NCBI RefSeq assembly: GCF_000186885.1
Contig: NC_014972.1
Location: forward strand, 1,410,001 to 1,442,000
From: Desulfobulbus propionicus DSM 2032
GTDB lineage: Bacteria > Desulfobacterota > Desulfobulbia > Desulfobulbales > Desulfobulbaceae
Direction: 5' to 3'
DNA: 32,000 nt
Under the pieces are notes generated by a model. It saw only the letters and a list, made by a program, of their open reading frames with translations. It was not told the DNA's origin and ran no database searches. The translations under genes were made by a program, and so were the position numbers. How positions within the stretch are numbered: the stretch's first letter is position 1; each line of letters begins with the position of its first letter. This document shows positions 498-20,637 of this stretch, piece after piece.

Positions 498-1089
498 ATC
501 TCTCATCCTTCTCGGACTGGCGGCGTTCGGTTTATTCCTGGGTTCCCTCACCGGCTGCAGCCCGGTTTCCCCCCAGGTCAGCTACTACAGTCTGCTCGAT
601 ACCCAACGGCCGCCCAGCGTCGCCGGTGCACGGCAGTCGTTGGCCATTCTTGTCGGCCCGGTTTCGGTGCCTGACCTGTTGAAAACGTCGCAAATCGCCA
701 CCGGAACGGCAGAGCGGTACCAACTCGCCGAGCAGCATCGATGGGTGAGCCAGGTTGACCGCGATTTTGCCCGTGCTATCGGCGAGCAGTTGGCCTCCAG
801 GCTGGGCACTGAACGAATCGCCCTCTATCCGCAGGATCAGTACCTGGCGGCACCCCTGCAGGTTGTAGTTGATATTCTGGCCATGGAAGGGACTTTGGGC
901 CAGGAGGCCAGATTGACGGTCCGTTGGTCGCTGGTCGCCACCAAGAGCAAAACAGCGCGGCTGACACGTCGCTCCACCTTCAGCGAACGACCGGCCGACA
1001 GCAGCCATGGCGCTTGGGTTGCAGCCCAGCGGCGCAATATCAGTCGGTTGAGCGAGGAAATTGCCGCCGCGATCACGTCGCAGCATTAA
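490..1089 (+). CDS. pqiC: PqiC-like ABC-transport auxiliary lipoprotein (DUF330 type)
   Basis: An internal ATG at 490 gives MNRSLILLGLAAFGLFLGSLTGC, a signal peptide with lipobox LTGC. The YYSL..., ..HRW.. and ..VVVDIL.. pattern resembles YmbA/PqiC. The start overlaps the upstream MCE gene. Confidence 0.6.
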   Translation: MNRSLILLGLAAFGLFLGSLTGCSPVSPQVSYYSLLDTQRPPSVAGARQSLAILVGPVSVPDLLKTSQIATGTAERYQLAEQHRWVSQVDRDFARAIGEQLASRLGTERIALYPQDQYLAAPLQVVVDILAMEGTLGQEARLTVRWSLVATKSKTARLTRRSTFSERPADSSHGAWVAAQRRNISRLSEEIAAAITSQH

Positions 1090-1390
1090 TCTTCGCCGGG
1101 ATGGTCAATGTCGCCTCGCTGCGGGAACTCCATGCCGCCAGCCGTCGTGAGCTGACCTTTTCCCTGGTGACCACGGTCGGCGTTCTTTACTTTGATGTCC
1201 TGCCCGGAGTGGCGTTGGCCATCGGCATGACCCTGCTGTGGATGCTTACACCGCAAGCCAGCCCCATGTGGCCGTGCTGGGACGAGTTCCGGGGATGAGC
1301 GGTTTTCTGCGCAATCGGGGGAGAGCGGTCGATCAACGGATCCAACGTAACCCAGGCAGTGCTTCTGCCTGCATCCCTTTGACAGGTGCA
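1090..1390 (+). pseudogene. SulP-family anion permease remnant, frameshifted and truncated at both ends
   Basis: Frame 3 reads IFAGMVNVASLRELHAASRRELTFSLVTTVGVLYFDVLPGVALAIGMTLLWML, which resembles the last TM helix and linker of SulP. Near 1255-1265 the similarity shifts to another frame (SQPHVAVLGRVPGMSGF, compare the RPHxAVLGRxPG linker before STAS) and then decays. There is no start codon, no TM core and no STAS domain. Confidence 0.55.
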
Positions 1391-1392
1391 AC

Positions 1393-2394
1393 ATGAACGA
1401 ACAACACCAACAGTCGCGCATCGGTGCATGGATGGGCAGTCTCTGGCAACGTCTTCAACCCCGGGCAACAGGCGAGGATCCCCTTGTCCAGGCCATGGAT
1501 CGGCTGGTGCAGGTCGCCGATCCGGTTATTCGTCAGTCCAAGGGATATCGACGGGTACTGGCTGGCCCGGTTGCTGGTTCAATGAAGTATTTCCAGTCAT
1601 TGCTGGAAACCATTCCTGGTCCGGTCATTCTTGATCGCAGTCGGTATTATGACGACCCCACCGTCAAGGCCCTGTTTGCCTCACCCGAAGAGCTCGACGA
1701 GCTGTTGCGCTACAACCCAGAGATCAACAAGCTACGCAAGCAAGGTCTGAGCGGCGAGATGGTGGCGATGATGACCATGTTGCAGCAGGAGCGCACCATC
1801 TTCGGTCATAAGCAGGAAGGAGAATTGCTCCTACGCGATGTGCGGCAGCAAGCGGTGAGTTTTACCGATCATCGTATTGTCGCGCCGTCTCTTGATCTCC
1901 AGACGACCAGGAATGGCATTGTTAACCGGGGGTTGGAGGTGTTGGCCACGGTTGCCATGGAGCGGATCACCTCGCTACGGGCAAACAAGGCCGAATTGCA
2001 AGGGAAAAAAGAATATCTCCAGGGAATGGCAAAAATTCTGGGTGGCAGATCGCATCGCCAGGAGATCTTTGCTGCCCCCACCCCGAAGAATCGGGAAGAG
2101 CTGCGCAAGGTTGAACAGCTCTTGGCCGAGGTTGAACAGGAGCTGGAGAAACTGCGCCAGCAGATTGCTCTCCCGGAACAGTCATTAGCGCGTCTTGAGG
2201 AAGTCCTGCTCCAGCCGGAATCGATGCTGGTTGCCCGCCGTCAGAGTCTCCGGCTGAATTGGAAAGGGGTGCGCGTCGACGACGAAGCCGGGAGCGAGGG
2301 CAACGACATCACCCTCGCGGAGTTTTCCATGGAGGACGTCCGCCGTTCGGCGGTGCTGGTGACGTTCACTCTGACGACAGCATCGAGTCCCTAA
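1393..2394 (+). CDS. hypothetical protein with a coiled-coil-like segment; no family recognised
   Basis: This is a 333-aa ORF with an ATG start and protein-like composition. The C-terminal half has heptad-like E/L/Q/K-rich stretches (..NREELRKVEQLLAEVEQELEKLRQQI..). The SD is weak. Confidence 0.6.
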   Translation: MNEQHQQSRIGAWMGSLWQRLQPRATGEDPLVQAMDRLVQVADPVIRQSKGYRRVLAGPVAGSMKYFQSLLETIPGPVILDRSRYYDDPTVKALFASPEELDELLRYNPEINKLRKQGLSGEMVAMMTMLQQERTIFGHKQEGELLLRDVRQQAVSFTDHRIVAPSLDLQTTRNGIVNRGLEVLATVAMERITSLRANKAELQGKKEYLQGMAKILGGRSHRQEIFAAPTPKNREELRKVEQLLAEVEQELEKLRQQIALPEQSLARLEEVLLQPESMLVARRQSLRLNWKGVRVDDEAGSEGNDITLAEFSMEDVRRSAVLVTFTLTTASSP

Positions 2395-2451
2395 ATATGA
2401 ACATACGTGCCCGTTTCCCGAACTTGTCCATGCGTATTTTAAATATTCAAA

Positions 2452-2546
2452 GGTGTCTTGGTTCAACGGGAATAGGACAATCCTGCCGTTTATGATAAAC
2501 CATCATGAACGGCAGGATTGTCCTATTCCCGTTGAACCAAGACACC
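2452..2546. repeat. perfect 39-bp inverted repeat (long hairpin)
   Basis: The left arm 2452-2490 (GGTGTCTTGGTTCAACGGGAATAGGACAATCCTGCCGTT) is the exact reverse complement of the right arm 2508-2546. Pairing can continue with ATGAT 2492-2496 and ATCAT 2502-2506 after one T/G position, which leaves a 5-nt loop (AAACC). Confidence 0.95.
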
Positions 2547-3018
2547 GATGGATGAGCGGGGAAGGATCTATATTGAAAAACCGATAGAATCAGTCGCTCC
2601 GAAAACGCGCAGAGAGAATGCGGCTTCGGAAAGACAAAGAAAGAGCTGTCGGTTCAATGGGGGAATTGGATAAAGGGGAAACGAATCGATAGATCCGTTT
2701 TGCAGGGGTGCGTGCGCAGTTCTCACGAGTCAGAGAAAGACGTTCGCCTCTGCGATTAAACGTCTCCGGTCGAGGAAAGGCAGCGCCGTGTGCTACTGAA
2801 GTTCAAGAACACAAAAACCGTGTCCAGCTAAGCCCTAAAAAGGGGTATCTCATTGGAAATGAGTCAGAATAATGGGTTTATTAATAAGTGCCTGGTGAGA
2901 AAAATCAAGATTAAAATGAGTTCGTCAGCTTTTGCCTGAGCATGAACGGGCGAACTCATTTGAAATATGCATGACCAAGGCCATAGTCGCCTCGGTTGAT
3001 CAAGCCCGCGCTGCTTAC

Positions 3019-4203
3019 CTATTTCTCGACAACCACTGCTATTCCCATGCCCCCGCCGATGCACAGTGTGGCCAGACCGCTTTTTGCTCCCCGTTTTTCC
3101 ATTTCATGGAGCAAGGACACCAGAATGCGAGCACCAGAGGCACCTATTGGGTGGCCGAGAGCTATTGCGCCCCCGTTGACATTGACCTTACTCATGTCAA
3201 AACCCAGATCTTTTGCGACAGCAACACTTTGCGAGGCAAATGCCTCATTTGCCTCAATCAGATCTATCTCGGTAAGTGTCTTTCCGGCCTTTGCCAATGC
3301 TTTTGGAGAAGCCGCTGCCGGGCCGATGCCCATGATTTCCGGCTTTACTCCTGCGGAGGCATAGCCCGTCAACTTTGCCATTGGCTTGATCCCCAATTCT
3401 TTTGCCTTATCGGCCGCCATGACGATGATGACCGCAGCACCATCGTTGATGCCTGAAGCATTGGCCGCTGTCACCATGCCATCGGGTTTGAATGCGGGCC
3501 TCAGTTTGTTGACTTTCTCCAGAGTGGAGTCAGGGGTGTAATGTTCATCAGTGTCAAACACGAGGGGAGCGCCTTTTCGTCTCGGAATGAGCACCGGAAC
3601 GATTTCATCCTTGAAACGTCCACTGGTAATAGCCGCTTCAGCCTTTTTCTGTGATTCGACTGCGAAGCGATCAAGTTCCTCCCTGGATAGATTCCAGTTC
3701 TCGCATATGTTCTCAGCCGTTATCCCCATGTGACAATTGCTCATCGCGCAGTGCAGGCCATCATGGACCATCATGTCGATGATACCATTCGTCGGCGCGT
3801 TCATTCTGTAACCGAAACGTGCCTGCGGCAGAGCATAAGCCGTGGCGCTCATGTTTTCCATGCCGCCGGCCACAATGATATCGGCGTCACCACACTGAAT
3901 TGCCTGGGCGGCCATCACGATGGATTTGAGACCGCTACCGCAAACCTTGTTTATAGTTACGGCGGGAACATCTTGGGGAATGCCTGCTTTGAGCATGGCC
4001 TGACGGGCCGGATTCTGCCCCAGCGCCCCTGTGAGCACACATCCCAAGATTACCTCATCGACCATTTCCGGCTTAATGCCGGACCTGTTCAGGGCGTCTT
4101 TGATGACAAGAGCTCCCAGTTCCACTGCTGGGACGTCTTTTATGGAACCACCAAATTTACCGACAGCAGTTCGACACGCACCGACTAGGACGACTTCACG
4201 CAT
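3019..4203 (-). CDS. acetyl-CoA C-acetyltransferase (thiolase II)
   Basis: The 394-aa protein starts [20 protein letters not shown]. It carries the active-site context [11 protein letters not shown] and the C-terminal motifs [17 protein letters not shown] and CIGGGMG. An AAGGAG RBS lies 7 nt upstream of the ATG. Confidence 0.95.
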
Positions 4204-4287
4204 TGTTCGTTCTCCTTAAGTTGGATCAAGCTTTTTATCGGTCTAAAACTCACCCCGACAGTATAAATCAGACCCGAAAATTCACGG

Positions 4288-5586
4288 TTAAAGACACTTG
4301 AGCCAGCCGATACCCCACATGCAATGCCCGCAAGGAACATGGCTGCCATAACAATCATTGGCACCAAGCAGGCTGGTGTTGACCAAATCGACGCACGGTC
4401 CTGCTGAACAACTCCAACAGGGCGCATAGTTATTCAATTTTACCTCTGCCCGAAAAGACCTATATGCGGGCTGTTGCCAGATCATCTCAAGTGGTTGCTC
4501 TTCGAGAGTGCCAAATACCAACTCCTTGACATGGATCGGCTCCTGGTTCACCCTGCTGGGGCAGGTGTGCCATAGAAAGTGACAGGGCATAACCTCCCCG
4601 TTTTTATTGATAAAAACAGCCTCTTCTTCAATGAACGGGCAGGAGCGCTGTCCGTCGGTGTGTGCATAAAGCGGTGGCAGGAAAAGCTCAATGCCACGGT
4701 CGGTCGCCAACTCTCGGACCCTATGGAATTGCTTCTCCAACTCCCGCTGGTCACTGTCCCCCCGTGCCGCCACCAGGTTGGGAAAATGGAAGGTAATGGC
4801 CTTCTCGTTCGCTTCTTTTTGCATGGCCGCACCAAGTCGCAGAACGATGCTATCGGACAAACTCTTGGAAAACCTGAGCTGCGCGGAAGGAAGGTCAGTC
4901 AGATCTACCCCTTGGGCAACGGCTTCAGCATTCCATTTTGCAAAGAGTTGCGTCGCCTCGTAGCTATTCGGATTGAAGAGAGTCTGCCCGGCCATTGTGC
5001 CATCGTAGGAAAAAAGATGGCTGGCGATAATGTAATCGATGCCGTGCATGTGCGCCCATTCGACAAGAGCCGGTAACTGATGGAGCGTATCTTTTTGCAG
5101 CACTACTTCGACACCTATTCGAATCGCTCGATTTGCCGCCTTTGCTGCCTCCGAGAGATTCGCGATCGCCTTCTCCACCGAAGATCGCTGGTGCCCCTCT
5201 CGACCAAGGGTGCCGGTCTGTTGCTCGTTCAGATTGTCAAGAGACAGACATACGGTGTCAATTCCGGCTTGAATGAGTTGCAGGGCTCGTTTCTTATGCA
5301 ACAACAGTCCGTTGCTTTGGAAGCCAATACGTCCATCAGGAGGCATGACGGCTCTCGCGAGAACGATTATCTCGTCCAGATCGGGATGCAGCAAAGGCTC
5401 ACCGATACCGTTGAGGACCAAAAACCGGGTATGGACCAGGGAAGGCACCAGTTTTTTAAAGAGCTCAAGCGGCATGTCTCCTTCCTCGATGCAACTTCCC
5501 TCTGCAAACTTAAGGCACATGGGGCACCGCAGATTACAATGCGTCGTCAGCTCAACGTAAACTTTTTCCGGATACTGAATGGACAT
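4288..5586 (-). CDS. radical SAM protein with a C-terminal SPASM/twitch-like Cys-rich domain
   Basis: The N-terminus has the CX3CX2C cluster motif (LTTHCNLRCPMC), followed by NGIGEPLL (GGE-like SAM motif). The C-terminus has CPFIEEEAVFINKNGEVMPC, then CWSCSAGPC, and ends ..CYGSHVPCGHCMWGIGWLKCL. No obvious SD is present. Confidence 0.85.
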   Translation of the reverse strand: MSIQYPEKVYVELTTHCNLRCPMCLKFAEGSCIEEGDMPLELFKKLVPSLVHTRFLVLNGIGEPLLHPDLDEIIVLARAVMPPDGRIGFQSNGLLLHKKRALQLIQAGIDTVCLSLDNLNEQQTGTLGREGHQRSSVEKAIANLSEAAKAANRAIRIGVEVVLQKDTLHQLPALVEWAHMHGIDYIIASHLFSYDGTMAGQTLFNPNSYEATQLFAKWNAEAVAQGVDLTDLPSAQLRFSKSLSDSIVLRLGAAMQKEANEKAITFHFPNLVAARGDSDQRELEKQFHRVRELATDRGIELFLPPLYAHTDGQRSCPFIEEEAVFINKNGEVMPCHFLWHTCPSRVNQEPIHVKELVFGTLEEQPLEMIWQQPAYRSFRAEVKLNNYAPCWSCSAGPCVDLVNTSLLGANDCYGSHVPCGHCMWGIGWLKCL

Positions 5587-5674
5587 GCTTTAAAACTACT
5601 TAGAAACATTAAAAAAACAGAATACGAAGCGTTCCGGAAATCAAAGGAAGAGAATGCCGTTAGTAGGCTCTTCT

Positions 5675-6511
5675 TCAGTTGCAGGGTTTCACCGCCTCGA
5701 TCGTGGCAGAAACGATAAAATCGGCCACAGAGGCCTCTGGTGTCCAGGTGCGGATGAAGGCCTTGCTTTCTTCCTTGGGGGATATTTGAATATCCACAAA
5801 CCCGGCTGTTTGCAGCATGCCTTCCAACTCTGAAATCAGAGAAGCGCCGGCAATACACCCGGCATGGAGGGCCATGTCACGCCTGATATGCTCAGGCAAT
5901 TCAGCGGTGGCGACAATGTCGGAGATGGCCAACCGGCCGCCCGGTTTGAGAACGCGGAAGGCATCAGTGAAGACCTGGGGTTTGTCCGGCGATAAATTGA
6001 TGACACAGTTGGAGAGGATAACGTCTACGGCATTATCGGCTACCGGCAGATGTTCTATTTCTCCCAGTCGAAACTCAACATTGCGATAACCGTTGTTTGC
6101 CGCATTGGCCCGGGCCTTGGAAAGCATTTCCGGTGTCATATCCACCCCGATGACATGACCGCTCTCTCCCACCTGACGAGCCGCCAGAAAACAATCAAAT
6201 CCAGCGCCGCTGCCAAGATCAAGGACAACTTCACCCGTTATTAATGCAGCAATGGCTTGAGGATTGCCGCACCCCAGGCCTAAATTGGCTCCTTCGGGTA
6301 CCGCGCCTATTTCATCGGAGGTGTATCCTAACTGTTGCGACACCTCAGGGGCTGGGCCGCTGCAGCAACTCGTGCTGCCACAACAACCTGCTTCAGCCGC
6401 TCGGCTATAGAGATCTCGCACAGCTTGCCGGACACCATCTTTTTCCAACATACTCATAATACCCTCGCTTGATTGCTGCGATTGTTCCGCAACGTCATAA
6501 AATTCAGCCAA
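5675..6511 (-). CDS. arsM: arsenite S-adenosylmethionine methyltransferase
   Basis: The SAM-binding motif is VLDLGSGAGFDCF. Cysteine contexts match the conserved ArsM cysteines: GCCGSTSCC (N-terminal), LGCGNP, SNCVINL and HAGCIAGA. The start is a TTG overlapping the upstream gene's stop by 8 nt; an internal ATG (M19 or M21) is an alternative. Confidence 0.85.
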   Translation of the reverse strand: MAEFYDVAEQSQQSSEGIMSMLEKDGVRQAVRDLYSRAAEAGCCGSTSCCSGPAPEVSQQLGYTSDEIGAVPEGANLGLGCGNPQAIAALITGEVVLDLGSGAGFDCFLAARQVGESGHVIGVDMTPEMLSKARANAANNGYRNVEFRLGEIEHLPVADNAVDVILSNCVINLSPDKPQVFTDAFRVLKPGGRLAISDIVATAELPEHIRRDMALHAGCIAGASLISELEGMLQTAGFVDIQISPKEESKAFIRTWTPEASVADFIVSATIEAVKPCN

Positions 6512-6734
6512 TCCAAGATTCTATTTCACTCTGCTTCGGTATCCGGCCAACACACTTGACCTGACCGTCAATGACAACTGCCGGAGTTGAGAAAACACCG
6601 AGTTGGGCGATTTCCTGAAAGTCCTTCACCTTGACGATGGTAGCTTGAACGCCTTTTAATGCGACAGCCGCTTCGACGGCCTTCTGGGTTTTTTCACAGG
6701 AAGCGCAGCCTGGTCCACATACTTTGATTTCCAT
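6504..6734 (-). CDS. small thioredoxin-fold protein (redox-active disulfide protein 2 type)
   Basis: MEIKVCGPGCASCEKT.. contains CxxC, and TPAVVIDG lies in the C-terminal half. The ATG at 6734 is preceded by GAGGA. The 76-aa size is typical of this family. Confidence 0.8.
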   Translation of the reverse strand: MEIKVCGPGCASCEKTQKAVEAAVALKGVQATIVKVKDFQEIAQLGVFSTPAVVIDGQVKCVGRIPKQSEIESWIG

Positions 6735-6750
6735 TTTTTCCTCTTTCAAA

Positions 6751-7857
6751 TCAGATGATTGTATTAAAGAGATAGCCGGTGAAAACTATCCCGCATCCCA
6801 CTACAAAAACAAAAACTGCGATCAATTTTGGTTTCAGGACCTTGCGAAGAATAATCATCTCCGGCAAAGAGAGCGCAATCACACTCATCATGAAAGCCAG
6901 CACTGTCCCCAAAGCGGCTCCTTTGCCGAGCAGTGCCTCGACTACCGGTACAATGCCGGCAGCATTGGAGTACATGGGAATGCCGACGACCACCGCCGCC
7001 GGAACAGACCACCACGCATCTTTGCCCATAACCTGCGCCATGAAATCTTCCGGCACATACCCATGAATAAAGGCGCCAACCGCGATGCCGGCGACCACAT
7101 AGATCCAGACTTTGCCGACGATATCACGAACAGCGTCCTTGCCCTGGTCGATCCGATCCGGCCAGGAGAGTTTTCTTTCAAAGACAAGGGCTTCACCGGC
7201 CCGCATTTCCTGGACCCAATCCTCAATCCAAGTCTCGAGTTTCAGGCGACCGATAACCCAACCTGCAACCATGGCAATCAAGAGTCCGGTGCTGAGATAG
7301 AGGGCCGCGACCTTCCAACCAAGCAAGCCATATAGAAGCGCCAAGGCAATTTCGTTGACCATCGGAGCCGCAATGAGAAACGAGAAAGTGACCCCCAAGG
7401 GAATACCTGCCTGAACGAAACCGAGAAATAAGGGAACGGCGGAACAGGAGCAGAAGGGGGTGACAATCCCGAGCAGGGCAGCCATGACGTTCCCTGCGGT
7501 TTCACGCTTGCCGGCCAGATATTGCCGGGTGCGTTCCTGAGTGAAAAAGGAACGGATAACGCCAATGACAAACACGATTAAAGTCAGCAACATCATGACT
7601 TTTGGCGTGTCATAGAGGAAAAACTGGATGGCGCCACCAAGTTGGCTGCCCTTTTTTATCTCAAATAAAGAATAGGTTACATAGGATGAAAAGGGTTCCA
7701 GATTGTTATAGATGACAAGCCAGATCCCAAGGCTGAACAGGCTGAGGAGGATGATTTTGCCCCATTGAACATTTTTTTCGATGACAGCTTCGCCAGCAGT
7801 TGCTTGTTTGGCGCAACTACAGCCGGGAGATTGCAGTGGTTCCATTTTATGCCTCAT
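6751..7857 (-). CDS. PF03773/DUF318-type permease (ArsP-like; organoarsenical efflux candidate)
   Basis: This is a polytopic membrane protein with the family-typical TPFCSCSAVP motif and a two-half architecture. Its ATG overlaps the arsR stop (ATGA at 7854-7857). Confidence 0.8.
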   Translation of the reverse strand: MRHKMEPLQSPGCSCAKQATAGEAVIEKNVQWGKIILLSLFSLGIWLVIYNNLEPFSSYVTYSLFEIKKGSQLGGAIQFFLYDTPKVMMLLTLIVFVIGVIRSFFTQERTRQYLAGKRETAGNVMAALLGIVTPFCSCSAVPLFLGFVQAGIPLGVTFSFLIAAPMVNEIALALLYGLLGWKVAALYLSTGLLIAMVAGWVIGRLKLETWIEDWVQEMRAGEALVFERKLSWPDRIDQGKDAVRDIVGKVWIYVVAGIAVGAFIHGYVPEDFMAQVMGKDAWWSVPAAVVVGIPMYSNAAGIVPVVEALLGKGAALGTVLAFMMSVIALSLPEMIILRKVLKPKLIAVFVFVVGCGIVFTGYLFNTII

Positions 7858-8201
7858 TTTTTAAGATATGCCCGTTGACACGTTGTGTCCGGCAAAGCTT
7901 GTTTCATCCGTAGCAGTTCAGGGTCTTCATTCAGCCAATCCTGCAAGACAATCAACATTCTCCCCGAGTACACGGACTCTTTCCCGTCAGCCTGGCTGTA
8001 TATCATCCAGGTTCCCTGCCGTTCTTTTTCCACCAATCCAGCATCCTCAAGAATTTTCATGTGGCTGGAGACGGTCGGTTGGGCGATGCCTAACGCTTCC
8101 TGAATCTCACAGACACAGAGAGCGTTTTTCTCAAGAAGTTTCAATATCCTCACCCGATTCGGATCCGAAAGAGCTTTCATGACACGCAAGAATGTTTTCA
8201 T
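7854..8201 (-). CDS. arsR: ArsR/SmtB-family metalloregulator with a CVC site
   Basis: ALSDPNRVRILKLL is followed by LCVCEI, the helix-3 As(III)-type Cys pair as in the ELCVCDL motif. The wHTH region reads QPTVSSHMKILEDAGLV. A GAGG RBS is present. Confidence 0.85.
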   Translation of the reverse strand: MKTFLRVMKALSDPNRVRILKLLEKNALCVCEIQEALGIAQPTVSSHMKILEDAGLVEKERQGTWMIYSQADGKESVYSGRMLIVLQDWLNEDPELLRMKQALPDTTCQRAYLKK

Positions 8202-8558: not shown

Positions 8559-8574
8559 TGGCATGATTGTTGAT
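8559..8574 (+). promoter_or_regulatory. sigma54-like -24/-12 element
   Basis: TGGCAT-gattg-TTGAT has correct GG-to-TTG spacing relative to TGGCAC-N5-TTGCW, but the -12 C is replaced by A. It lies about 74 nt upstream of the ATG at 8648. Confidence 0.3.
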
Positions 8575-8647
8575 ATTCAACGAACAAGCTAGTCGATGTG
8601 ATTCAGTAGGTGAACCATCAAAATGTAACAACCAACGAGGTGCAACC

Positions 8648-8971
8648 ATGAAAAAGATGAAGAAATTCGTGTTGGCAGTAGGATGCTTGCTGATGGCCAG
8701 TGGCGCCGCATGGGCAGTAGATTATTCAAAACTTTCTACAGATGAGTTGAGTCGTATGAGGGGAACCATGTACAACGCCAGCCAAACGGAATGGAATGCC
8801 TTTCATACCGAATGGTGGAAACGACTCGACAAGATGACTCCGGAACAACGGCAACAGTACTTTGGTCCGGGGCGTGGTGGCATGGCCATGGGACGCGGCA
8901 TGGGACGTGGCATGGGACGTGGTCCGGGATGGTGGGGAGCTGGTGCTGCAAACCAGGGTACCGGCAACTGA
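8648..8971 (+). CDS. small secreted protein with a Gly/Met/Arg repeat tail (possibly Spy/CpxP/ZraP-like)
   Basis: The signal peptide is MKKMKKFVLAVGCLLMASGAAWA. An LTxxQ-like segment (KMTPEQRQQY) is present, and the C-terminus reads GRGGMAMGRGMGRGMGRGPGWWG. The functional class is only a resemblance. Confidence 0.65.
   Translation: MKKMKKFVLAVGCLLMASGAAWAVDYSKLSTDELSRMRGTMYNASQTEWNAFHTEWWKRLDKMTPEQRQQYFGPGRGGMAMGRGMGRGMGRGPGWWGAGAANQGTGN
8888..8923 (+). repeat. 12-bp tandem repeat x3 encoding (MGRG)3
   Basis: The three units are atgggacgcggc, atgggacgtggc and atgggacgtggt, lying inside the CDS above. Confidence 0.9.
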
Positions 8972-9228: not shown

Positions 9229-10209
9229 TCATCGGGAAGGGTTGATACCTGGTAAGGATGGGGGTGAATCGCAGGATGTATCAACCGAGCAGCCTTCTTG
9301 ATTTTCTGCTGGAGGGAGCAAAGGATTATTGATGGAGGTTGCACTTGAATGAATGTTGGGCAAGTTTTCTGATTTTCGACCATGGGTGGCGAGGCTGTCG
9401 AGGAAGGCAATACATGCGCTCTCTCCTTTGACAATTGAGAAGCCATTCGTTGTCCGGATTAAGAGAACAGGTATCTCTTCTATTCCCAGTGTGGTGAGCA
9501 GAGCCTTGTTTGCCCCAGCAGAGTATCGCGGATTCAAAATGACTTCAGGAACGGCAAGTGACGATATTGTGTCTATGGGATTAAAATGCATCGAGATAAC
9601 AGCATTATTCCGCATTGTCTTCAGGACTCGTTGACAGTGGCTGCATGTTGAAGAAAAGAAAAGATAGACTGTAGCAGTTGGTGATGCAATGATTCTGCTG
9701 GCAAAAACTCCATCGCGGATGGCGTTGGGATTCTTGTGGCTGCTGTTATATTCAAGGCTGGAAAAAGCAAGGAGAACTACGCCGAACACAAAAAAGCTCG
9801 TCAACAGTTGCTTGATTCCGGCTAGAACATTAAGCAGTGTAATAAATCCTAGAACGATCAGGCAATATGTGCAGAATGTTCCGGCTATTATCTGCTGAAA
9901 ACCAACAAGAACCCCTTCAGCGGCAAGCCCTGCGAGGAGGAGCAAACGGACCAATTGTGCTCGGTTTGCCCCCTCATCGTTAATTCGGAACAGGCACCAG
10001 AACACTGCTTGAAAAAAGAATAGCCCGGTAAAATTGAACCACAGTGGTGGAACTTTGGTTAATTGGTCAACCACTTGACAACCTTGGCTCAAACACAATC
10101 CTTCCTGGCCAAGAAGCAGAATAATAATCTGGGCGGCAACCATTAGGCTGGCGAGTAAAGCTGCCCATTTAACTCTTTGCATGCGCAGCCATTTATTTTT
10201 TCTATACAT
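9229..10209 (-). CDS. VKOR-like membrane thiol oxidoreductase fused to a thioredoxin-fold domain
   Basis: About five TM helices are present, with a loop Cys pair (GLCLSQGC) and an intramembrane CXXC (FCTYCL) as in the VKOR family. A C-terminal soluble domain carries FFSSTCSHCQ (CxxC). The start is uncertain (ATG 10209 or 10182). The 440-aa track ORF extends antisense into arsR and is not credible. Confidence 0.65.
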   Translation of the reverse strand: MYRKNKWLRMQRVKWAALLASLMVAAQIIILLLGQEGLCLSQGCQVVDQLTKVPPLWFNFTGLFFFQAVFWCLFRINDEGANRAQLVRLLLLAGLAAEGVLVGFQQIIAGTFCTYCLIVLGFITLLNVLAGIKQLLTSFFVFGVVLLAFSSLEYNSSHKNPNAIRDGVFASRIIASPTATVYLFFSSTCSHCQRVLKTMRNNAVISMHFNPIDTISSLAVPEVILNPRYSAGANKALLTTLGIEEIPVLLIRTTNGFSIVKGESACIAFLDSLATHGRKSENLPNIHSSATSINNPLLPPAENQEGCSVDTSCDSPPSLPGINPSR

Positions 10210-10285
10210 ACCAGAGCATTTCAAGCAATATATAATAATTTCAGTCGAATGCAACTTTTGCCAAATCGTTGAACGAGATTTCCGC

Positions 10286-10314
10286 TTGACAATAATTGTT
10301 GGTTGATTTACCAA
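10286..10314 (+). promoter_or_regulatory. candidate promoter with a palindrome upstream of the second arsR
   Basis: TTGACA (10286-10291) is followed by a 17-nt spacer and TACCAA (10309-10314, a weak -10). The 11-bp palindrome ACAATAATTGT (10289-10299) overlaps the -35 and spacer. The predicted TSS falls at or next to the ATG at 10322, and no SD is present. Confidence 0.3.
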
Positions 10315-10321
10315 ATGACAA

Positions 10322-10657
10322 ATGGAAAAGCAACGACCGACTGAAAAAGAGATGGCCCTTGTTGAAGCGAAAGCCAACGTCCTGAAAGCATTGGGCCACC
10401 CAACAAGACTGTGGATGGCCGAACAGCTTGCCGATGGGGAAAAATGTGTTTGCGAATTGGCTGAGTTCATCGACGCCGATTTTTCGACCATTTCAAAACA
10501 TCTGTCTGTCCTTAAACAGGCGGGGGTGGTCGACGATGAGAAGCGGGGCAAGCAGGTTTATTATCGGCTTAAAGTGCCGTGCATTCTCAAGTATATGTCG
10601 TGCGTCGAGGCTGTCATCAAAGCAAGCGTGAAAGAACAGGTTGAGATGCTAGCATAA
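10322..10657 (+). CDS. arsR: ArsR/SmtB-family metalloregulator with a CVC site
   Basis: LKALGHPTRLWMAEQL is followed by EKCVCEL, then FSTISKHLSVLKQAGVV (wHTH). Confidence 0.85.
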   Translation: MEKQRPTEKEMALVEAKANVLKALGHPTRLWMAEQLADGEKCVCELAEFIDADFSTISKHLSVLKQAGVVDDEKRGKQVYYRLKVPCILKYMSCVEAVIKASVKEQVEMLA

Positions 10658-10717
10658 TCTGCAAGTATCTTTTTGCTTTTTATATGGTCACTTGGCCAAA
10701 CAAGCAATGGTGTAATT

Positions 10718-12019
10718 ATGGAATGGAAGGTTGAGTGGAAATATCTCCTTTTGATCATTGGTGTTTTTCTCGCCTGTTATTATCTGCCCGTGGGGACGGA
10801 GCGGTTTGACAATGCCATTCTAGAGGCCTTCCATCTCGTCAAATGGTATGCGCAAGAACATGTTCTGCTCTGCCTGGTCCCGGCCTTCTTTATCGCCGGG
10901 GCGATTGGAGTTTTCGTCAGTCAGACCTCGGTCATGAAATACCTCGGCCCGACCGCCAACAAGGTGATCGCCTATGGCGTGGCCGCTGTTTCCGGCACCA
11001 TCCTTGCGGTGTGTTCCTGTACTATCCTTCCCTTGTTCAGCGGTATTTACAGGATGGGGGCTGGACTTGGACCAGCCTGCGCTTTTCTCTATTCCGGTCC
11101 GGCTATCAATGTGTTGGCCATCATTCTCACAGCACGAATTCTTGGCACTGAAATAGGTGTTGCCAGAGGTGTAGGAGCCGTCCTGTTTAGCGTGATTATT
11201 GGTGCGCTCATGGCATTTATTTTCCGTAGTGAAGAACAGGAAAAAGCAACAGTCCAAATGGCCTTACCCGAAGAGGAAGTCAAACGTTCTCTCTTGCAGA
11301 ATGCTCTCTATTTTGCCTCGATGGTAGGGGTTCTGGTTTTTGCTAACTGGGGTAAGCCGCAGGAACCTGTGGGTGTCTGGGCAACCATCTATGCCATGAA
11401 ATGGATGATCACCTCAGGATTTGCCGCAGCTTTGGGCTTGATCCTGATTGTTTGGTTTAAAATGAGGGCTTGGAAAGTCGGTCTGATCGCCGCTCCTGTG
11501 GTGGCCTTTGCAATGTTCTTCCCAGAGCAGCCTGTGGTGGCCTTTGCAGCAGGTTTTGTTGGATTATCCATTTTCACCAGCACAGATAAGGACGAATTAG
11601 GGGATTGGTTCTCCTCTTCATGGGGATTTGCTAAGCAAATTTTACCATTATTGCTCTTTGGCGTGCTGATAGCCGGCGCTTTGCTGGGTCGTGTTGGTCA
11701 CGAAGGCCTTATACCTTCAGAATGGGTTGCCAAAGCCGTGGGCGGCAACTCTCTTCTAGCCAATTTTTTTGCCTCCTTCGCCGGAGCTTTCATGTATTTC
11801 GCCACTTTGACTGAAGTTCCGATCGTCCAAGGGCTCATCGGCAGCGGCATGGGCAAGGGACCTGCGTTGGCACTACTTCTCGCTGGCCCTGCTTTGAGCC
11901 TACCCAATATGCTGGTGATCAATAGTGTCCTTGGAGTGAAAAAAACAGTCACCTTTGTCAGTTTGGTGATTGTGATGGCCACTTTTTGCGGCATGTTGTT
12001 TGGCTCGTTTTTTAACTAA
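10718..12019 (+). CDS. PF03773/DUF318-type permease, long variant
   Basis: This is a polytopic membrane protein whose motif GTILAVCSCTILP is equivalent to the TPFCSCS motif. It has extra central TM segments. The start is uncertain (ATG 10718 or TTG 10673). Confidence 0.8.
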   Translation: MEWKVEWKYLLLIIGVFLACYYLPVGTERFDNAILEAFHLVKWYAQEHVLLCLVPAFFIAGAIGVFVSQTSVMKYLGPTANKVIAYGVAAVSGTILAVCSCTILPLFSGIYRMGAGLGPACAFLYSGPAINVLAIILTARILGTEIGVARGVGAVLFSVIIGALMAFIFRSEEQEKATVQMALPEEEVKRSLLQNALYFASMVGVLVFANWGKPQEPVGVWATIYAMKWMITSGFAAALGLILIVWFKMRAWKVGLIAAPVVAFAMFFPEQPVVAFAAGFVGLSIFTSTDKDELGDWFSSSWGFAKQILPLLLFGVLIAGALLGRVGHEGLIPSEWVAKAVGGNSLLANFFASFAGAFMYFATLTEVPIVQGLIGSGMGKGPALALLLAGPALSLPNMLVINSVLGVKKTVTFVSLVIVMATFCGMLFGSFFN

Positions 12020-12038
12020 TTCAACGGAGAAAAAGACA

Positions 12039-12272
12039 ATGAAAGTTCAAATTTTAGGCCCGGGATGCGCCAAATGTACCAAGCTTATGGATACTGCGGC
12101 AGCAGCCGCTCAAGAACTGGGCATTGCCTGTGAATTTGAGAAGATTTCGGACGTGAATCAAATCATGGGATTCGGCGTTATGATGACCCCAGGTCTTGTG
12201 GTCGACGGGGAAGTGAAAAGCGTCGGCAAGGTGCCATCGCTGGAAGAAATGAAAAAACTATTAAAGAAGTGA
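12039..12272 (+). CDS. small thioredoxin-fold protein (redox-active disulfide protein 2 type)
   Basis: MKVQILGPGCAKCTKL (CxxC) and MTPGLVVDG are present. GGAG lies about 9 nt upstream of the ATG at 12039. It is a paralogue of 6504-6734. Confidence 0.8.
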   Translation: MKVQILGPGCAKCTKLMDTAAAAAQELGIACEFEKISDVNQIMGFGVMMTPGLVVDGEVKSVGKVPSLEEMKKLLKK

Positions 12273-12285
12273 AGAGGAGAAAGCA

Positions 12286-12675
12286 ATGAGTGCAATGCAA
12301 ACCGGATGCGGTTGTTCCTGCGGTGGTGGGGATGCAGGACCAAAAGTCATTTTTTCCTGTTCAGGGTGTGCCGATGTTGGTGAACTCGCTGATCAGGCTG
12401 CACGTAAATTGACCAGGGATGGCGCGGGCAAAATGGCTTGCCTGGCAGGGATTAGTGGCAAGGTCAGTGGCATCGTAAAATCTGCCGAGGCTGCGCAGTC
12501 AATTCTGGCCATAGATGGCTGCCCACTCGACTGCACCCGCAAGACCTTGGAGATTGCCGGGTTCTCCAGAGTTAACCATCTTCGCTTGAGTGATCTTGGC
12601 TTTGAGAAGGGGGATACGGAGGTGTCCCGTGCGTCTATTGCCTCGGTCATCAGCAAAGCAATGATCTACCTTTAA
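12286..12675 (+). CDS. DGC-domain Cys-rich (putative metal-binding) protein
   Basis: The N-terminus reads GCGCSCGGG, followed by FSCSGC, CLAGI and the eponymous IDGCPLDC motif. Confidence 0.75.
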   Translation: MSAMQTGCGCSCGGGDAGPKVIFSCSGCADVGELADQAARKLTRDGAGKMACLAGISGKVSGIVKSAEAAQSILAIDGCPLDCTRKTLEIAGFSRVNHLRLSDLGFEKGDTEVSRASIASVISKAMIYL

Positions 12676-12690
12676 GCGTAGGAGTCGACG

Positions 12691-13086
12691 GTGCGAACGT
12701 ATTCTTTCCCGGGTGCCTTGATGGCTCTCGCCCTATTTGTATCTATTGGACTCTTTGCGCTCTCCCAAACGCCAGTCATGGCAGAGCCTTTGCCAGAAGT
12801 ACCAGCCCCCGGCCTGGTGACCATAGTCGACATTGGGGCTAAAAAATGCATCCCCTGCAAGATGATGGCCCCCATCCTCGAAGAGTTGACCAAAGAATAT
12901 CAAGGACGTGCAGCGGTCATCTTCATAGATGTCTGGGAAAAGCCTGAAGCGGGACCTAAATTTGGTATACGGGCTATCCCTACACAGATCTTTTATGACG
13001 CGCAAGGCAAAGAAGTAACCCGTCATGAGGGCTTTTTGGATAAGCAATCCATTGTCAGCATGTTCACCAAATTAGGGGTCAAGTAA
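12691..13086 (+). CDS. exported thioredoxin-family protein (CIPC active site)
   Basis: The start is GTG with an AGGAG RBS. The signal peptide ends ..LSQTPVMA. The Trx active-site context is GAKKCIPCKMMAP, with the cis-Pro context IRAIPTQIF. Confidence 0.85.
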   Translation: MRTYSFPGALMALALFVSIGLFALSQTPVMAEPLPEVPAPGLVTIVDIGAKKCIPCKMMAPILEELTKEYQGRAAVIFIDVWEKPEAGPKFGIRAIPTQIFYDAQGKEVTRHEGFLDKQSIVSMFTKLGVK

Positions 13087-13088
13087 CC

Positions 13089-13796
13089 ATGGATCAGGTC
13101 TTTCTCACCATCAATGCCTGGATGACTCAGGGCCTCCTCTTGGGGGCCTTGGGCTGTTTTCTCTGGGGCATGGTCAGCGTTTTGTTCAGTCCCTGTCACT
13201 TGGCCTCCATCCCCCTTATTGTCAGTTATGTGGCGGGACAGAATCAAATCGTGGCAGGAAAGAAGGCTGTTCTTTATGCCGTGGCATTTACCATCGGTTT
13301 ATTTATCACCATCGCCACCATTGGCGTTGTTTGCACCTTGCTTGGGCGCATGCTTGGCGATGTCGGACCCTATATGAGCATCGCTGTGGGTGCAATTCTT
13401 GTCTGGGTTTCCCTGGATATCCTCGGCGTGGCCAAATGCTCCATGTCCAGTGGACTTATGGCGAAGATTAAGGTGAAAGGGTTGTTTGGCGCGCTCGTTC
13501 TTGGTTTAGCCTACGGTATTCTTTCCGGATCGTGCACCTTCGGCTTTATTGCCCCCATTCTTGCTATCATTACCGTGCAACAGAAAATCCTCACCGGAGT
13601 CGTTTTCATCCTTCTCTTTGGGATTGGCCATTGCATTCCCATTGCCGTTGCCGGCAGCTCCACCGCCATGGTCAAACGATTTCTGGAAAACAGCGCCTGG
13701 CAACAAGGAAGCGGCCTTTTCCGTAAACTTGCCGGTGTTTGTATTGGCGCCTTGGGGATTTATTTCATTAGCCAACCGCTCATGGCAATAGTGTAG
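13089..13796 (+). CDS. ccdA: CcdA/DsbD-type transmembrane thiol-disulfide electron transporter
   Basis: About six TM helices carry the two conserved Cys contexts FSPCHLASIPL and GSCTFGFIAPIL. The start lies 2 nt after the thioredoxin stop. Confidence 0.85.
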   Translation: MDQVFLTINAWMTQGLLLGALGCFLWGMVSVLFSPCHLASIPLIVSYVAGQNQIVAGKKAVLYAVAFTIGLFITIATIGVVCTLLGRMLGDVGPYMSIAVGAILVWVSLDILGVAKCSMSSGLMAKIKVKGLFGALVLGLAYGILSGSCTFGFIAPILAIITVQQKILTGVVFILLFGIGHCIPIAVAGSSTAMVKRFLENSAWQQGSGLFRKLAGVCIGALGIYFISQPLMAIV

Positions 13797-13831
13797 TTCG
13801 ACCAGGATGGTTCACGGGGAAGGAGACTTCC

Positions 13832-14719
13832 ATGTTCAACCGGTTCATCGTCGCAACGGATTTATCCCCGGCATCCTTTGCAATGGTGCAGCACATTGGG
13901 AACCTGAAGCTCTGTGGTGCTCGTCATTGCCTGCTTTTGCAGTGCCTCTCGCCTGAAGAATATGATTCGACAGTCTTCGCTTATGACACCAAGGTGTTGA
14001 GCAATATCCTCCGACAACAGAAGGAAATTCTGAAAAATCAGGGATATTCAGTTGAAACGCGTGTTGTATCGGGCAACACGAAACATCAGCTTAATCAGAT
14101 AGCCCTGCGAGAAAATTACGCCCTCTTTGTGGTGGGGACACGGGAATATTCCCTTATCGGTGAGAGCTTTTTGGGGGGTGGTGCCAACGATGTAATGCAC
14201 CATGCTTGTAAACCCGTTTTACGCCTGCGGGGCGACTTGGGAACAGGAGAGAAAAATTATGCCACCAACCATTTCAGATTCAATGAGCATGTGCTTTACC
14301 CCACCGACTTCTCCGACAATTCAACTCGTGCGTTCAGGTACGTCAAAGAGCTGGTGGCCTGTGGTGCACAAAGGGTAACGCTTTTTCATGTTCAGAAACC
14401 ACAACATGGCCACAGTCAAAAGGTTCGGCCAGGTGATGCAGGTGATAGTCCCTTGCAGTATTTGAAAGATTTGCAGGAGGCTCTGCGAGGTATTGGCAAA
14501 GCCAAAATTCGAATTGAAATGCGTGAGGGCTCACCAACGCCGGAAATTCTTCGCTGGATGCTGGAGCACGAAGTGCAATTGGTCGTCATGGCATCCCATT
14601 GCCGAAACATGGTTGAAGAATTCTTTGTTGGCAGCGTGAGCCACGATATTGCCCGTCATGCAGAGGCCAGTGTGCTTTTTATCCCTTCGGTACACCCCAA
14701 TTCGTGGTCGGTTCAATAG
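13832..14719 (+). CDS. tandem universal stress protein (two Usp domains)
   Basis: There are two halves, each beginning with a Usp-like strand (FIVATDLSP; VLYPTDFSD). The second half ends GSVSHDIARHAEASVLFIP. Confidence 0.8.
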   Translation: MFNRFIVATDLSPASFAMVQHIGNLKLCGARHCLLLQCLSPEEYDSTVFAYDTKVLSNILRQQKEILKNQGYSVETRVVSGNTKHQLNQIALRENYALFVVGTREYSLIGESFLGGGANDVMHHACKPVLRLRGDLGTGEKNYATNHFRFNEHVLYPTDFSDNSTRAFRYVKELVACGAQRVTLFHVQKPQHGHSQKVRPGDAGDSPLQYLKDLQEALRGIGKAKIRIEMREGSPTPEILRWMLEHEVQLVVMASHCRNMVEEFFVGSVSHDIARHAEASVLFIPSVHPNSWSVQ

Positions 14720-14857
14720 CAATCATGTCGGCACTTTTCAAAAGAACAATTTGGCAGGCGGTTGCCACGGTGTTTTGGCGGCCTTGCCAGGTGAACGCAT
14801 AAAAAACATATCTGTGTGTTCGTAATCCGCGATTCGCAATTAGATTGGAGGTTGGTT

Positions 14858-16159: not shown

Positions 16160-16170
16160 GGAGATTTATT

Positions 16171-17172: not shown

Positions 17173-17214
17173 TAACGATGATTTTATAAAATCAAAACTA
17201 TTGCCAAGGAGAAT

Positions 17215-17679
17215 ATGATGAAGCGTTTCAGATTAATTGCGATGTTACTTTCTGTACTTTTAGTGAATGCTCCTCTATTTGCACAAGAGGAGAAAAACAT
17301 TTCATTTGATGACTATCTCAAATCGTTTGATTATAAAGAACGAAAAAATATGAAAATTGAAATCCCTGAAATGCTGGAACTCTACAAACAGGGATCTGCC
17401 CAAATTATCGATATTCGCTTTCCTGAAGAATATCAGGCATACAGTTTTAGTTTTATCAAGAGCATTCCGTTGAACGAACTTCCTGCGCGGCTCGCCGAAC
17501 TTGATAAAAACAAAATTATCGTCACCATTTGTCCTCATTACGACCGGGCAGAAATAGCACGAACTTACCTGACATTGAAAGGATATCGTTCAAAATATTT
17601 AGTCGATGGCGCGGTTGGGCTGGCCGAATATCTCAGAGGTGATAAGGCACGAGATTTTATCAATGCCATAAAAAAATAA
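17215..17679 (+). CDS. exported single-domain rhodanese-like protein
   Basis: The signal peptide is MMKRFRLIAMLLSVLLVNAPLFA. The rhodanese fold has the loop VTICPHYDRA. Confidence 0.8.
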   Translation: MMKRFRLIAMLLSVLLVNAPLFAQEEKNISFDDYLKSFDYKERKNMKIEIPEMLELYKQGSAQIIDIRFPEEYQAYSFSFIKSIPLNELPARLAELDKNKIIVTICPHYDRAEIARTYLTLKGYRSKYLVDGAVGLAEYLRGDKARDFINAIKK

Positions 17680-17733
17680 GAGTGCGATCCTTTTGAACTG
17701 CATGCGGCTCACAGATACACACCTGCCTGTGCA

Positions 17734-18221: not shown

Positions 18222-20320
<2,099 letters not shown>

Positions 20321-20324
<4 letters not shown>

Positions 20325-20635
20325 AGCCGTCCGACTATAACTCGAAGCACGAGAAAGGTCCGGCTCACAGTGCCAAGATTGATCGGGACGCGAGGCGCCG
20401 CCTGAAAGCACAACGGGAGAAGAATAAAAATATCTGGTACGGCATGGGTATGTTCGGCCTGGTGGGGTGGTCAATAGCCATTCCGACCCTGCTGGGAGTA
20501 GCTTTGGGGATGTGGATTGATCGCCGGTGGCCAAGCCCTTATTCCTGGACGTTGATGCTGCTCTTTGCTGGCCTGATGGTTGGCTGTATCAACAGCTGGC
20601 ACTGGATCAAACAAACAGGCAAGGACGACGAGTGA
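20321..20635 (+). CDS. atpQ: N-ATPase AtpQ (ATPase_gene1/AtpZ-like small membrane protein)
   Basis: The ATGA overlaps the atpC stop. Two TM helices are present (WYGMGMFGLVGWSIAIPTLLGVALGMWIDRRW..). The position matches the atpDCQRBEFAG order. Confidence 0.75.
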
Positions 20636-20637
20636 GG

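Follow-up and report, generated by a model that had tools for sequence, protein, structure and literature searches.

This work concerns a window of 32,000 nucleotides from Desulfobulbus propionicus DSM 2032 (contig NC_014972.1, positions 1,410,001 to 1,442,000 of the forward strand; all coordinates below count from the first letter of this window) and, within it, a gene for a radical S-adenosylmethionine (SAM) protein with a SPASM domain, here called rSAM. The gene lies directly after arsM in an arsenic-resistance (ars) operon. By its sequence, rSAM is a full-length member of TIGR04311, a catalogued, uncharacterised family.

The ars operon

The locus comprises six minus-strand genes, separated by short gaps or overlapping. 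Starting from the head of the operon, these are:

7854-8201, minus strand: arsR, the operon's first gene, for an ArsR/SmtB repressor (PF01022, 69 bits; NF033788, 96 bits)
6751-7857, minus strand: ArsP_1-family permease, a putative efflux component (PF03773, 266 bits)
6504-6749, minus strand: Trx3, a small protein of the MTH895/ArsE family resembling thioredoxin (redox-active disulfide protein 2; PF13192, 94.6 bits; TIGR00412, 93 bits)
5675-6511, minus strand: arsM, arsenite S-adenosylmethionine methyltransferase (NF008823, 367 bits, cut-off 263)
4288-5586, minus strand: rSAM, radical SAM/SPASM gene (ATG start, 432 amino acids; TIGR04311 member)
3019-4203, minus strand: acetyl-CoA acetyltransferase (thiolase), downstream of rSAM (Thiolase_N and Thiolase_C; TIGR01930, 483 bits)

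The ArsR reads L-C29-V-C31-E in the region of its DNA-binding helix; from the R773 ArsR paradigm, we take this motif to be the signature of As(III)-sensing ArsRs. The permease resembles the SaoE and SO_0444 efflux models weakly. An earlier reading of the letters by a model without database searches (the sequence-only reading) had recognised arsM, and the NF008823 score bears this out. The probable true start of arsM is the ATG at 6457, which yields a protein of 260 amino acids; gene callers on identical contigs also give this length. The spacing of Cys 43/44, 81, 169 and 219 appears to be that expected for the catalytic cysteines of ArsM.

On their common strand, 88 base pairs (bp) separate the end of arsM from the start of rSAM, and 84 bp separate rSAM from the thiolase gene. 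A scan for promoters and terminator-like sites found nothing in either gap, the totals being no higher than in shuffled sequence, and rSAM and arsM are probably co-transcribed. Scanned in full against Rfam, the window had no match; thus, no riboswitch precedes the rSAM gene. The arsM-rSAM intergenic region, when aligned across four loci, proved poorly conserved, with neither a peptide open reading frame (ORF) nor a regulatory element. Three other metagenome contigs encode an identical rSAM protein with the same neighbours. rSAM has the marks of an ars operon component: it is co-directional with closely spaced neighbours, the ArsR is of the As(III) type, and the arrangement is seen across species.

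The thiolase was considered as a functional partner and rejected, since it lies downstream of rSAM solely in the window's closest clade (L001, L012, L065, L081-L083 and L085; L numbers denote the loci of relatives described below). It is probably a passenger or neighbour, outside the system.

Family membership, motifs and fold

Pfam places Radical_SAM at residues 12-177 (E 7e-14) and SPASM (PF13186) at residues 316-393 (E 1e-12; 48.5 bits, cut-off 21.5). Residues 5-432 align with the entire TIGR04311 profile (1-423 of 423) at 469.1 bits (cut-off 400; E 1.4e-140). This model, rSAM_Geo_metal, is entitled 'radical SAM/SPASM family putative metalloenzyme maturase' in NCBIfam. The second-best NCBIfam match is TIGR04317, entitled tungsten cofactor oxidoreductase radical SAM maturase, with 210.7 bits in two stretches and hence under its cut-off of 380; the matches below it are generic radical SAM cores only (MoaA, NirJ, PqqE and others). 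The main sequence features are listed here, with conservation referring to 104 aligned homologues of 46-75% identity:

5515-5538, minus strand: C17-x3-C21-x2-C24, ligands of the SAM-cleaving [4Fe-4S] cluster; invariant
5395-5412, minus strand: N59-G-I-G-E-P64, a 'GGE'-type motif, putatively SAM-binding by analogy with other radical SAM enzymes; N59, G60, G62 and E63 invariant, P64 in at least 90%
4756-4971, minus strand: helical insert of about 70 amino acids (residues ~206-277), skipped in TIGR04317-type alignments
4393-4641, minus strand: SPASM region, C316-x13-G330-x4-C335 ... C390-x2-C393-x4-C398; all five Cys invariant
4291-4356, minus strand: C-terminal extension, D411-C412-YGSHVP-C419-GH-C422-MWGIGWLK-C431-L432; four further invariant Cys

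The motifs that the sequence-only reading had picked out in ORF 4288-5586, namely CX3CX2C at 17-24, the SPASM cysteines and the C-terminal triad, are therefore all present. There are twelve invariant cysteines in total (17, 21, 24, 316, 335, 390, 393, 398, 412, 419, 422 and 431), and D411, P418, G420, H421 and W424 are likewise invariant. The second half of the SPASM region reads C390-W-S-C393-SAGP-C398, and the canonical SPASM pattern Cx2Cx5Cx3C is replaced by Cx2Cx4C-x13-C-x6-C-x2-C-x8-C. The long insert between core and SPASM part, also part of the earlier reading, is real: 138 residues lie between the two Pfam domains, and residues ~206-277 are lacking in TIGR04317 relatives. In length, motifs, insert and C-terminus, rSAM matches the aligned homologues; nothing sets it apart from TIGR04311. 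Some longer members (P0134, P0178 and others) were considered as domain fusions and set aside as uninformative, since they are apparently chimeras from gene calling, or else end in response-regulator tails.

An AlphaFold model of rSAM (pLDDT 84, pTM 0.86) is less confident at residues 122-128 and in the final ten or so residues (421-428 low). It resolves the insert into helices at 209-224, 229-237, 243-261 and 268-276. A Foldseek search of the PDB with this model retrieved BlsE, DesII, SkfB, SuiB, PqqE, CteB and anSME, at TM (template modelling) scores of about 0.5 and 12-16% identity; these are generic SPASM/twitch enzymes, and no specific relative was found among PDB structures. Searching PDB sequences with the 104-sequence profile likewise gave only remote radical SAM cores, with BtrN (2e-10) first, followed by GDGT-MAS, MoaA and PqqE. 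Literature searches found no paper on TIGR04311 or TIGR04317, and nothing relevant on radical SAM/SPASM proteins with arsM, acr3 or arsenic resistance, or on a radical SAM maturase of tungsten enzymes.

The sister family TIGR04317 and the C-terminal cysteines

When 1.8 billion representative proteins were searched with a profile, approximately 80 full-length TIGR04311 representatives came up, followed by proteins of 345-375 amino acids whose alignments fall into two stretches (about 7-205 and about 278-428) and skip roughly residues 206-277. These shorter relatives are members or near-members of TIGR04317. Several of them (P0209, P0225, P0256 and P0268) end in DC..PC-x2-C..C as rSAM does and have the full set of nine C-terminal cysteines; one such ending reads '...DCNGNTPSCGDCLWARGLIYCP'.

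The two families thus have the N-terminal core, the SPASM region and the nine-Cys C-terminus in common, and basal TIGR04311 members also share the tungsten aldehyde oxidoreductase (W-AOR) neighbourhood. rSAM differs in its extra helical insert of about 70 amino acids, in scoring only 211 bits against the 380 of the TIGR04317 cut-off, and in its place in an ars operon. Across the window, 38 larger ORFs were annotated, among them every one closer than about 12 kb to rSAM, and none showed an AFOR domain; within the family, AFOR neighbours occur only with the distant members L089 and L092.

The sequence-only reading had treated the terminal Cys triad as a feature related to arsenic. Since the triad is common to TIGR04317 and TIGR04311, it is no evidence for an arsenic site; it is a signature of the whole clade, and the cysteines are most simply read as ligands of Fe-S clusters. 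By count, the nine C-terminal cysteines could ligate two predicted auxiliary [4Fe-4S] clusters and leave one or more Cys over: two fully ligated clusters need eight, so that there is room for a spare thiol or a third site. The 'maturase' role attached to both families is an assignment by their curators.

Gene neighbourhoods of TIGR04311 relatives

To compare neighbourhoods, 80 species-level genome loci of TIGR04311 relatives from Desulfobulbales and Desulfovibrionales were retrieved by the motifs PCHFLWH[TS] and VPCGHC[MQL]W, which these loci therefore contain by construction. Neighbours were compared in two ways, namely with the window proteins as queries and by unbiased clustering of flanking ORFs of at least 70 amino acids. 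Among the full-length loci with usable flanks, 24 of 63 are ars-linked within 3 kb, and the figure is 20 of 32 among relatives that are at least 45% identical. The 24 consist of 16 loci with acr3, arsA, arsM or arsC within 3 kb, and eight with the permease and Trx3 cassette.

At least four operon architectures can be distinguished among the ars-linked loci. The commonest, arsR-acr3-rSAM, occurs in approximately 15 loci (acr3 matching TIGR00832 at 377 bits) and usually continues with an Fe-S protein, c3. About 12 loci, two Desulfovibrionaceae among them, have arsR-permease-Trx3-rSAM, in some cases with arsM or a DGC-domain gene inserted; Trx3 lies immediately upstream of rSAM in L005-L008, L049 and L086, and the DGC-domain gene stands between the two in L042. 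Cultured carriers of the family include Desulfobulbus rhabdoformis DSM 8777 (L008), Desulfovibrio sp. 7SRBS1 (L042) and Desulfofustis glycolicus. The order arsA-rSAM is found in L028 and L060 (arsA matching TIGR04291 at 746 bits), and acr3-rSAM-FeS-arsC in L029 and L068, with arsC of the low-molecular-weight protein tyrosine phosphatase (LMW-PTP) type. In the deep-branching member L090, arsR-arsC-rSAM stands beside arsD-arsA. Nearly all ArsRs adjacent to these relatives carry LCVC(E/Q/D). The possibility that rSAM replaces arsC was rejected, as L029, L068 and L090 have arsC in the same operon.

Alternatively, rSAM may be a passenger gene unrelated to arsenic, brought to its place by the assembly of genomic islands in Desulfobulbales. 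The window does combine transporters with several cassettes headed by an ArsR, in the manner of a mosaic; many members of the family lack ars genes as neighbours, and the downstream thiolase shows that unrelated genes travel with rSAM. What makes this explanation quite unlikely is the recurrence of same-strand adjacency to acr3, arsA, arsC or Trx3 in at least four architectures and several deep branches, with 40-55% identity between loci; in addition, strict ars genes are found beside rSAM and are not spread over the flanks, just one locus having such a gene solely in the outer flank (beyond 5 kb).

The protein c3 has 173-180 amino acids and combines an N-terminal domain of about 110 residues and of unknown type with a PF04060 Fe-S domain (the AcsC/RnfB N-terminal type). 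Its gene directly follows rSAM in the acr3- and arsA-type loci (L026:11315-11848 and about 11-17 others), usually within 40-60 bp in those with acr3, and c3 is probably a dedicated electron donor or partner of rSAM.

A small protein such as c3 or Trx3 is thus often adjacent, and the closest folds include SkfB, SuiB, PqqE, CteB and anSME. Both points fit a SPASM maturase that modifies peptides or proteins, either of the type acting on ribosomally synthesised and post-translationally modified peptides (RiPPs) or of the anSME type, with Trx3, ArsM or c3 as its target. This is nevertheless very improbable: the fold likeness is of the generic kind described above, and no one protein partner is common to all ars-linked architectures. 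A precursor-like small ORF is also missing, as the sequence-only reading had held; the gaps that flank rSAM are 84-88 bp in the window, 42 bp in L001 and 30-150 bp in most loci, and they are unconserved (neighbour clustering used ORFs of at least 70 amino acids, and smaller ones elsewhere were not searched exhaustively).

A second radical SAM/SPASM gene, encoding 314-380 amino acids, was seen by the same ars loci in L016 (7270-8331, minus strand), L017 (2369-3313, minus strand) and L068 (10200-11342); in L016 and L017, it is divergent from arsR. These were checked as possible second copies of rSAM and turned out to be unrelated SPASM proteins, 24-28% identical to it. In L009, L013 and L061, genes of the ATP-synthase alpha/beta family are directly upstream of arsR-acr3-rSAM.

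The link to arsM and comparison with ArsS and ArsL

Two radical SAM enzymes that act on arsenic next to arsM provide the points of comparison. ArsL belongs to the arsQML genes of Burkholderia gladioli and to arsinothricin biosynthesis (PMC8552651); ArsS works with ArsM on arsenic in cyanobacteria, in arsenosugar biosynthesis, according to the work cited in PMC8552651. As in arsQML, the radical SAM gene of the window directly follows arsM in an ArsR-controlled operon with a permease. The proteins themselves differ. ArsL has only three conserved cysteines, 194, 198 and 201 (CX3CX2C), and a single predicted cluster (PMC8552651), whereas rSAM has its motif at 17-24, together with a SPASM domain and nine further invariant cysteines. 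This published layout contradicts the Cys-rich C-terminal As(III) motif that the sequence-only reading had given for ArsL. The permeases differ too, the arsQML one being the GntP-type ArsQ and that of the window belonging to ArsP_1 (PF03773). No ArsS or ArsL model is found among the best 25 of 43 NCBIfam matches to rSAM (the weakest of these 25 at 33 bits). With respect to ArsS, rSAM therefore belongs to another family by the NCBIfam models, and its adjacency to arsM is lineage-specific. That rSAM is neither ArsS nor ArsL, as the earlier reading had suspected, is thereby supported. Its architecture is unrelated to both, and rSAM adds a third kind to the radical SAM genes of ars operons.

The conserved partnership with arsM that had been expected was not found. 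Among the 80 loci, arsM adjoins rSAM only in L001 (64% identical) and L012 (75%), to which the look-up relatives L081-L085 can be added; in these close metagenomic relatives, the order arsR-permease-Trx3-arsM-rSAM(-thiolase) is as in the window. In L068, arsM lies 3.3 kb away on the opposite strand. The sister loci L086 (63%) and L005-L008 (55-59%) have arsR-permease-Trx3-rSAM without arsM, which makes arsM an optional insertion in one small clade; the other ars-linked relatives are mostly next to acr3 or arsA. The gene appears to be a later, lineage-specific addition to the module, and its pairing with rSAM would be recent and local.

These data bear on the possibility that rSAM is an obligate partner of ArsM in the manner of ArsS or ArsL. 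It would form a new C-As bond, with As(III) or its methylated form bound by the Cys triad, and the permease would export the product. The order permease-methyltransferase-rSAM under ArsR mirrors arsQML (PMC8552651), it is kept in the close clade (the window, L001, L012 and L081-L085), and arsM looks functional from its sequence. This partnership is still unlikely, since arsM is absent not only from L005-L008 and L086 but also from almost every other ars-linked relative, where As(III) pumps take its place; the Cys triad is clade-wide and also present in proteins linked to W-oxidoreductases; and the best 25 NCBIfam matches lack both ArsS and ArsL.

The wider family and a possible maturase function

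Starting from a distant member, another homologue search extended the family to Deferrisomatales, Thermodesulfovibrionales, Syntrophus and Geobacteraceae. In L092, the family member ends a W-AOR operon, Fer4-AFOR-NIR_SIR-lipoyl-NIR_SIR-rubredoxin-rSAM, and L089 has AFOR and a ThiS/MoaD-like gene near it. The order in L087 (Deferrisoma camini, 912-7332) is NikR-CbiMQO-aminotransferase-rSAM, and the contexts of L088 and L091 are uninformative. Distant members also close importer operons for nickel/cobalt (L087) or of the Opp/Nik type (L035/L038), and the aminotransferase is adjacent again in L091. Among the 80 loci, members outside ars operons are preceded by asd (in five loci) or by ABC importers of the Opp/Nik type, or have DUF364/DUF4213, NifX-like or CGGC genes beside them.

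Distance-based neighbour-joining trees, rooted on TIGR04317, were built without bootstraps; as they are crude, only their coarse pattern is trustworthy. The W-AOR-linked members come out as basal, and the ars-linked ones are spread over no fewer than four separate branches, with other contexts in between.

Taken at its name, the family would supply a maturase or repair enzyme for a metallocofactor or metalloenzyme (a W/Mo-pterin enzyme or another metal cofactor) that is induced by arsenite. In that case, rSAM would retain the ancestral role that TIGR04317 and the basal contexts imply, and would not act on arsenic. The inhibition of Mo/W hydroxylases by arsenite is established biochemistry, and because arsenite poisons dithiolene and Fe-S cofactors, copies of such a maturase might have come under ArsR control. 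Several observations are in keeping with this. Beyond the curated name of TIGR04311, the next-best match is TIGR04317 at 211 bits, which has the same nine-Cys C-terminal architecture. Basal members L089 and L092 stand beside AFOR, ThiS/MoaD-like, ferredoxin and rubredoxin genes, and neighbours of a cofactor type recur elsewhere (NifX-like, DUF364/DUF4213 'heavy-metal chelation', CGGC, DGC, and nickel/cobalt transporters). In its N-terminal half, the protein is similar to MoaA (68 bits; 22-25% identity across some 195 aligned residues). That ars and other contexts alternate in the tree suggests one activity that is useful in several settings. On the other hand, no AOR or pterin gene was found among the annotated genes near rSAM, either in the window or in ars-linked loci. 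Moreover, ars operons normally encode self-contained detoxification steps, expression only on derepression of ArsR would be odd for a housekeeping cofactor, and the label 'maturase' is itself only the inference of curators, with no paper found on either family. The maturase explanation, the main rival of the function proposed below, is possible, albeit doubtful; even so, a non-arsenic cofactor role for rSAM is nearly as likely as arsenical chemistry.

Proposed function

At less than even confidence, we tentatively favour the reading that rSAM is an ArsR-controlled, oxygen-independent enzyme that transforms a small-molecule arsenical. Speaking for it are the family membership with intact catalytic motifs, the operon structure, the ars linkage in independent architectures and in several branches of the tree, the LCVC motif of adjacent ArsRs, the lack of a precursor peptide, and the precedent of ArsS and ArsL. 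In this scheme, arsenite would derepress the operon arsR-ArsP_1 permease-Trx3-arsM-rSAM. rSAM would reductively cleave SAM to give a 5'-deoxyadenosyl radical, with the two predicted auxiliary clusters shuttling the electron. The substrate would be a small-molecule arsenical and not a peptide, and the O2-independent step would make or, more likely, break a C-As bond. The product would then be removed by the neighbouring transporter: ACR3/ArsA for As(III) in most relatives, and the ArsP-type permease in the window. Cleavage, which yields As(III), is preferred because an As(III) pump is the only transporter of most relatives, and because rSAM takes the slot that arsC or arsI occupies in aerobic operons.

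rSAM may accordingly be seen as an anaerobe's functional counterpart of O2-dependent enzymes of the ArsI/ArsH type. No C-As lyase other than ArsI is known; ArsI is a non-haem iron dioxygenase that depends on O2, and its gene is silent in strictly anoxic soil; O2 is also required by the known methylarsenite oxidases, and the enzymes for anaerobic demethylation outside methanogens are unknown (bioRxiv 10.64898/2026.08.27.747368). The analogy with ArsI is putative and purely functional, resting on the slot 'enzyme next to pump' in ars operons; the two proteins have no relationship in sequence or fold. A more far-reaching version is that the ars-linked TIGR04311 clade represents a new arsenic enzyme that arose from a tungsten/metal-cofactor maturase scaffold, either as the first O2-independent C-As lyase/demethylase, a radical-SAM counterpart of ArsI supplying ACR3/ArsA with As(III) in strict anaerobes, or as a third radical-SAM former of C-As bonds that is unrelated to ArsS and ArsL. 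This, too, is conceivable, though it must be regarded as doubtful.

A number of points weigh against an arsenical-transforming rSAM. No residue or motif specific to arsenic binding was found in the protein, and the case for an arsenical substrate is one of gene neighbourhood throughout. A C-As lyase beside arsM would look futile. The Cys-rich C-terminus is common with TIGR04317, which curators link to tungsten oxidoreductases, and c3, the preferred partner in other loci, is not present in the window. About 60% of loci lack ars genes. In the crude neighbour-joining tree, the ars-linked P0275 and the nickel-linked P0303 are close sisters, a relationship that suits a generic function no less than one specific to arsenic. 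Finally, basal TIGR04311 members lie in W-AOR operons (L092, L089) or after NikR-CbiMQO-aminotransferase (L087), and with such basal contexts, the arsenical substrate is no more than putative. The suggestion of a third, uncharacterised arsenic enzyme made by the sequence-only reading consequently survives in part: rSAM is uncharacterised and its family is found repeatedly in ars operons, but it is no orphan, being above the TIGR04311 cut-off, and its action on an arsenical is putative.

Other genes of the window

The rest of the window forms an arsenic and thiol-stress island. Between the divergent ArsR cassettes, a plus-strand gene encodes a secreted protein with a GRGMGRGMGRG repeat, relatives of which are near rSAM in L022 and L023. 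The plus-strand cassette at 10322-18162 runs from arsR through an ArsP_1 permease (448 amino acids), Thioredoxin_3, a DGC-domain protein, thioredoxin and a DsbD-type membrane protein to a tandem universal stress protein (Usp), a triple-rhodanese protein, a cation diffusion facilitator (CDF) transporter and two more rhodanese proteins. It has weak matches to models of the TsoB/TsoR selenoprotein system and, by its gene content, looks like a stress module for thiol or sulfur (selenium) transfer rather than a classical ars operon. The two arsenic regions are separated by an alternate F1F0 ATPase operon, and the ATP-synthase genes noted above in L009, L013 and L061 are probably of the same operon kind.

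The canonical arsenic set of the window, at a distance of 20 kb from rSAM, comprises an ArsP_1-like permease and arsR-arsA / acr3-arsC-arsC. Its arsA scores 770 bits with TIGR04291 and its acr3 457 bits with TIGR00832; the two LMW-PTP arsC-like genes are under the equivalog cut-off. In the position expected for arsD, there is a membrane-anchored protein with CPSC...CPDC and no family match. By acr3 lies a C-terminal piece of a molybdopterin (bis-pyranopterin guanine dinucleotide, bis-PGD) oxidoreductase resembling TtrA/PhsA; molybdopterin oxidoreductases are also found 2-3 kb from rSAM in L006 and L008. Two further ORFs lack a Pfam match, one of which seems to encode a membrane protein with several passes, its C-terminal part resembling thioredoxin (weak match to TrbB). 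The coordinates are as follows:

1393-2394, plus strand: ORF of 333 amino acids without Pfam match, downstream of an ABC_trans_aux lipoprotein gene (469-1089)
8567-8971, plus strand: secreted protein of 134 amino acids with the glycine-rich repeat
9229-10551, minus strand: ORF of 440 amino acids without Pfam match, the probable membrane protein
10322-18162, plus strand: thiol/sulfur cassette
18541-25108, plus strand: alternate (N-type) F1F0 ATPase operon
25174-31259: canonical arsenic set, with the ArsP_1-like permease on the minus strand and arsR-arsA / acr3-arsC-arsC at 26353-31259
26814-27227: membrane-anchored protein of 137 amino acids in the arsD position
31528-31944, minus strand: molybdopterin oxidoreductase piece

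Significance

Sulfate reducers and other strict anaerobes drive the methylation and demethylation of arsenic in paddy soils and sediments. Its sequence makes rSAM an unremarkable member of a family already catalogued; seen as a system, it joins ArsS and ArsL in ars operons as a third kind, and no description of an arsenic association of TIGR04311 was found in the searchable literature. Placed between pump and reductase genes in the ars operons of dozens of Desulfobulbales and Desulfovibrionales species, the family offers a clonable candidate for the missing anaerobic chemistry of organoarsenicals. If it should instead provide a maturase, arsenic operons would be shown to include a function in cofactor repair, likewise a novelty. 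Either way, the name 'putative metalloenzyme maturase' hides the connection of TIGR04311 to arsenic.

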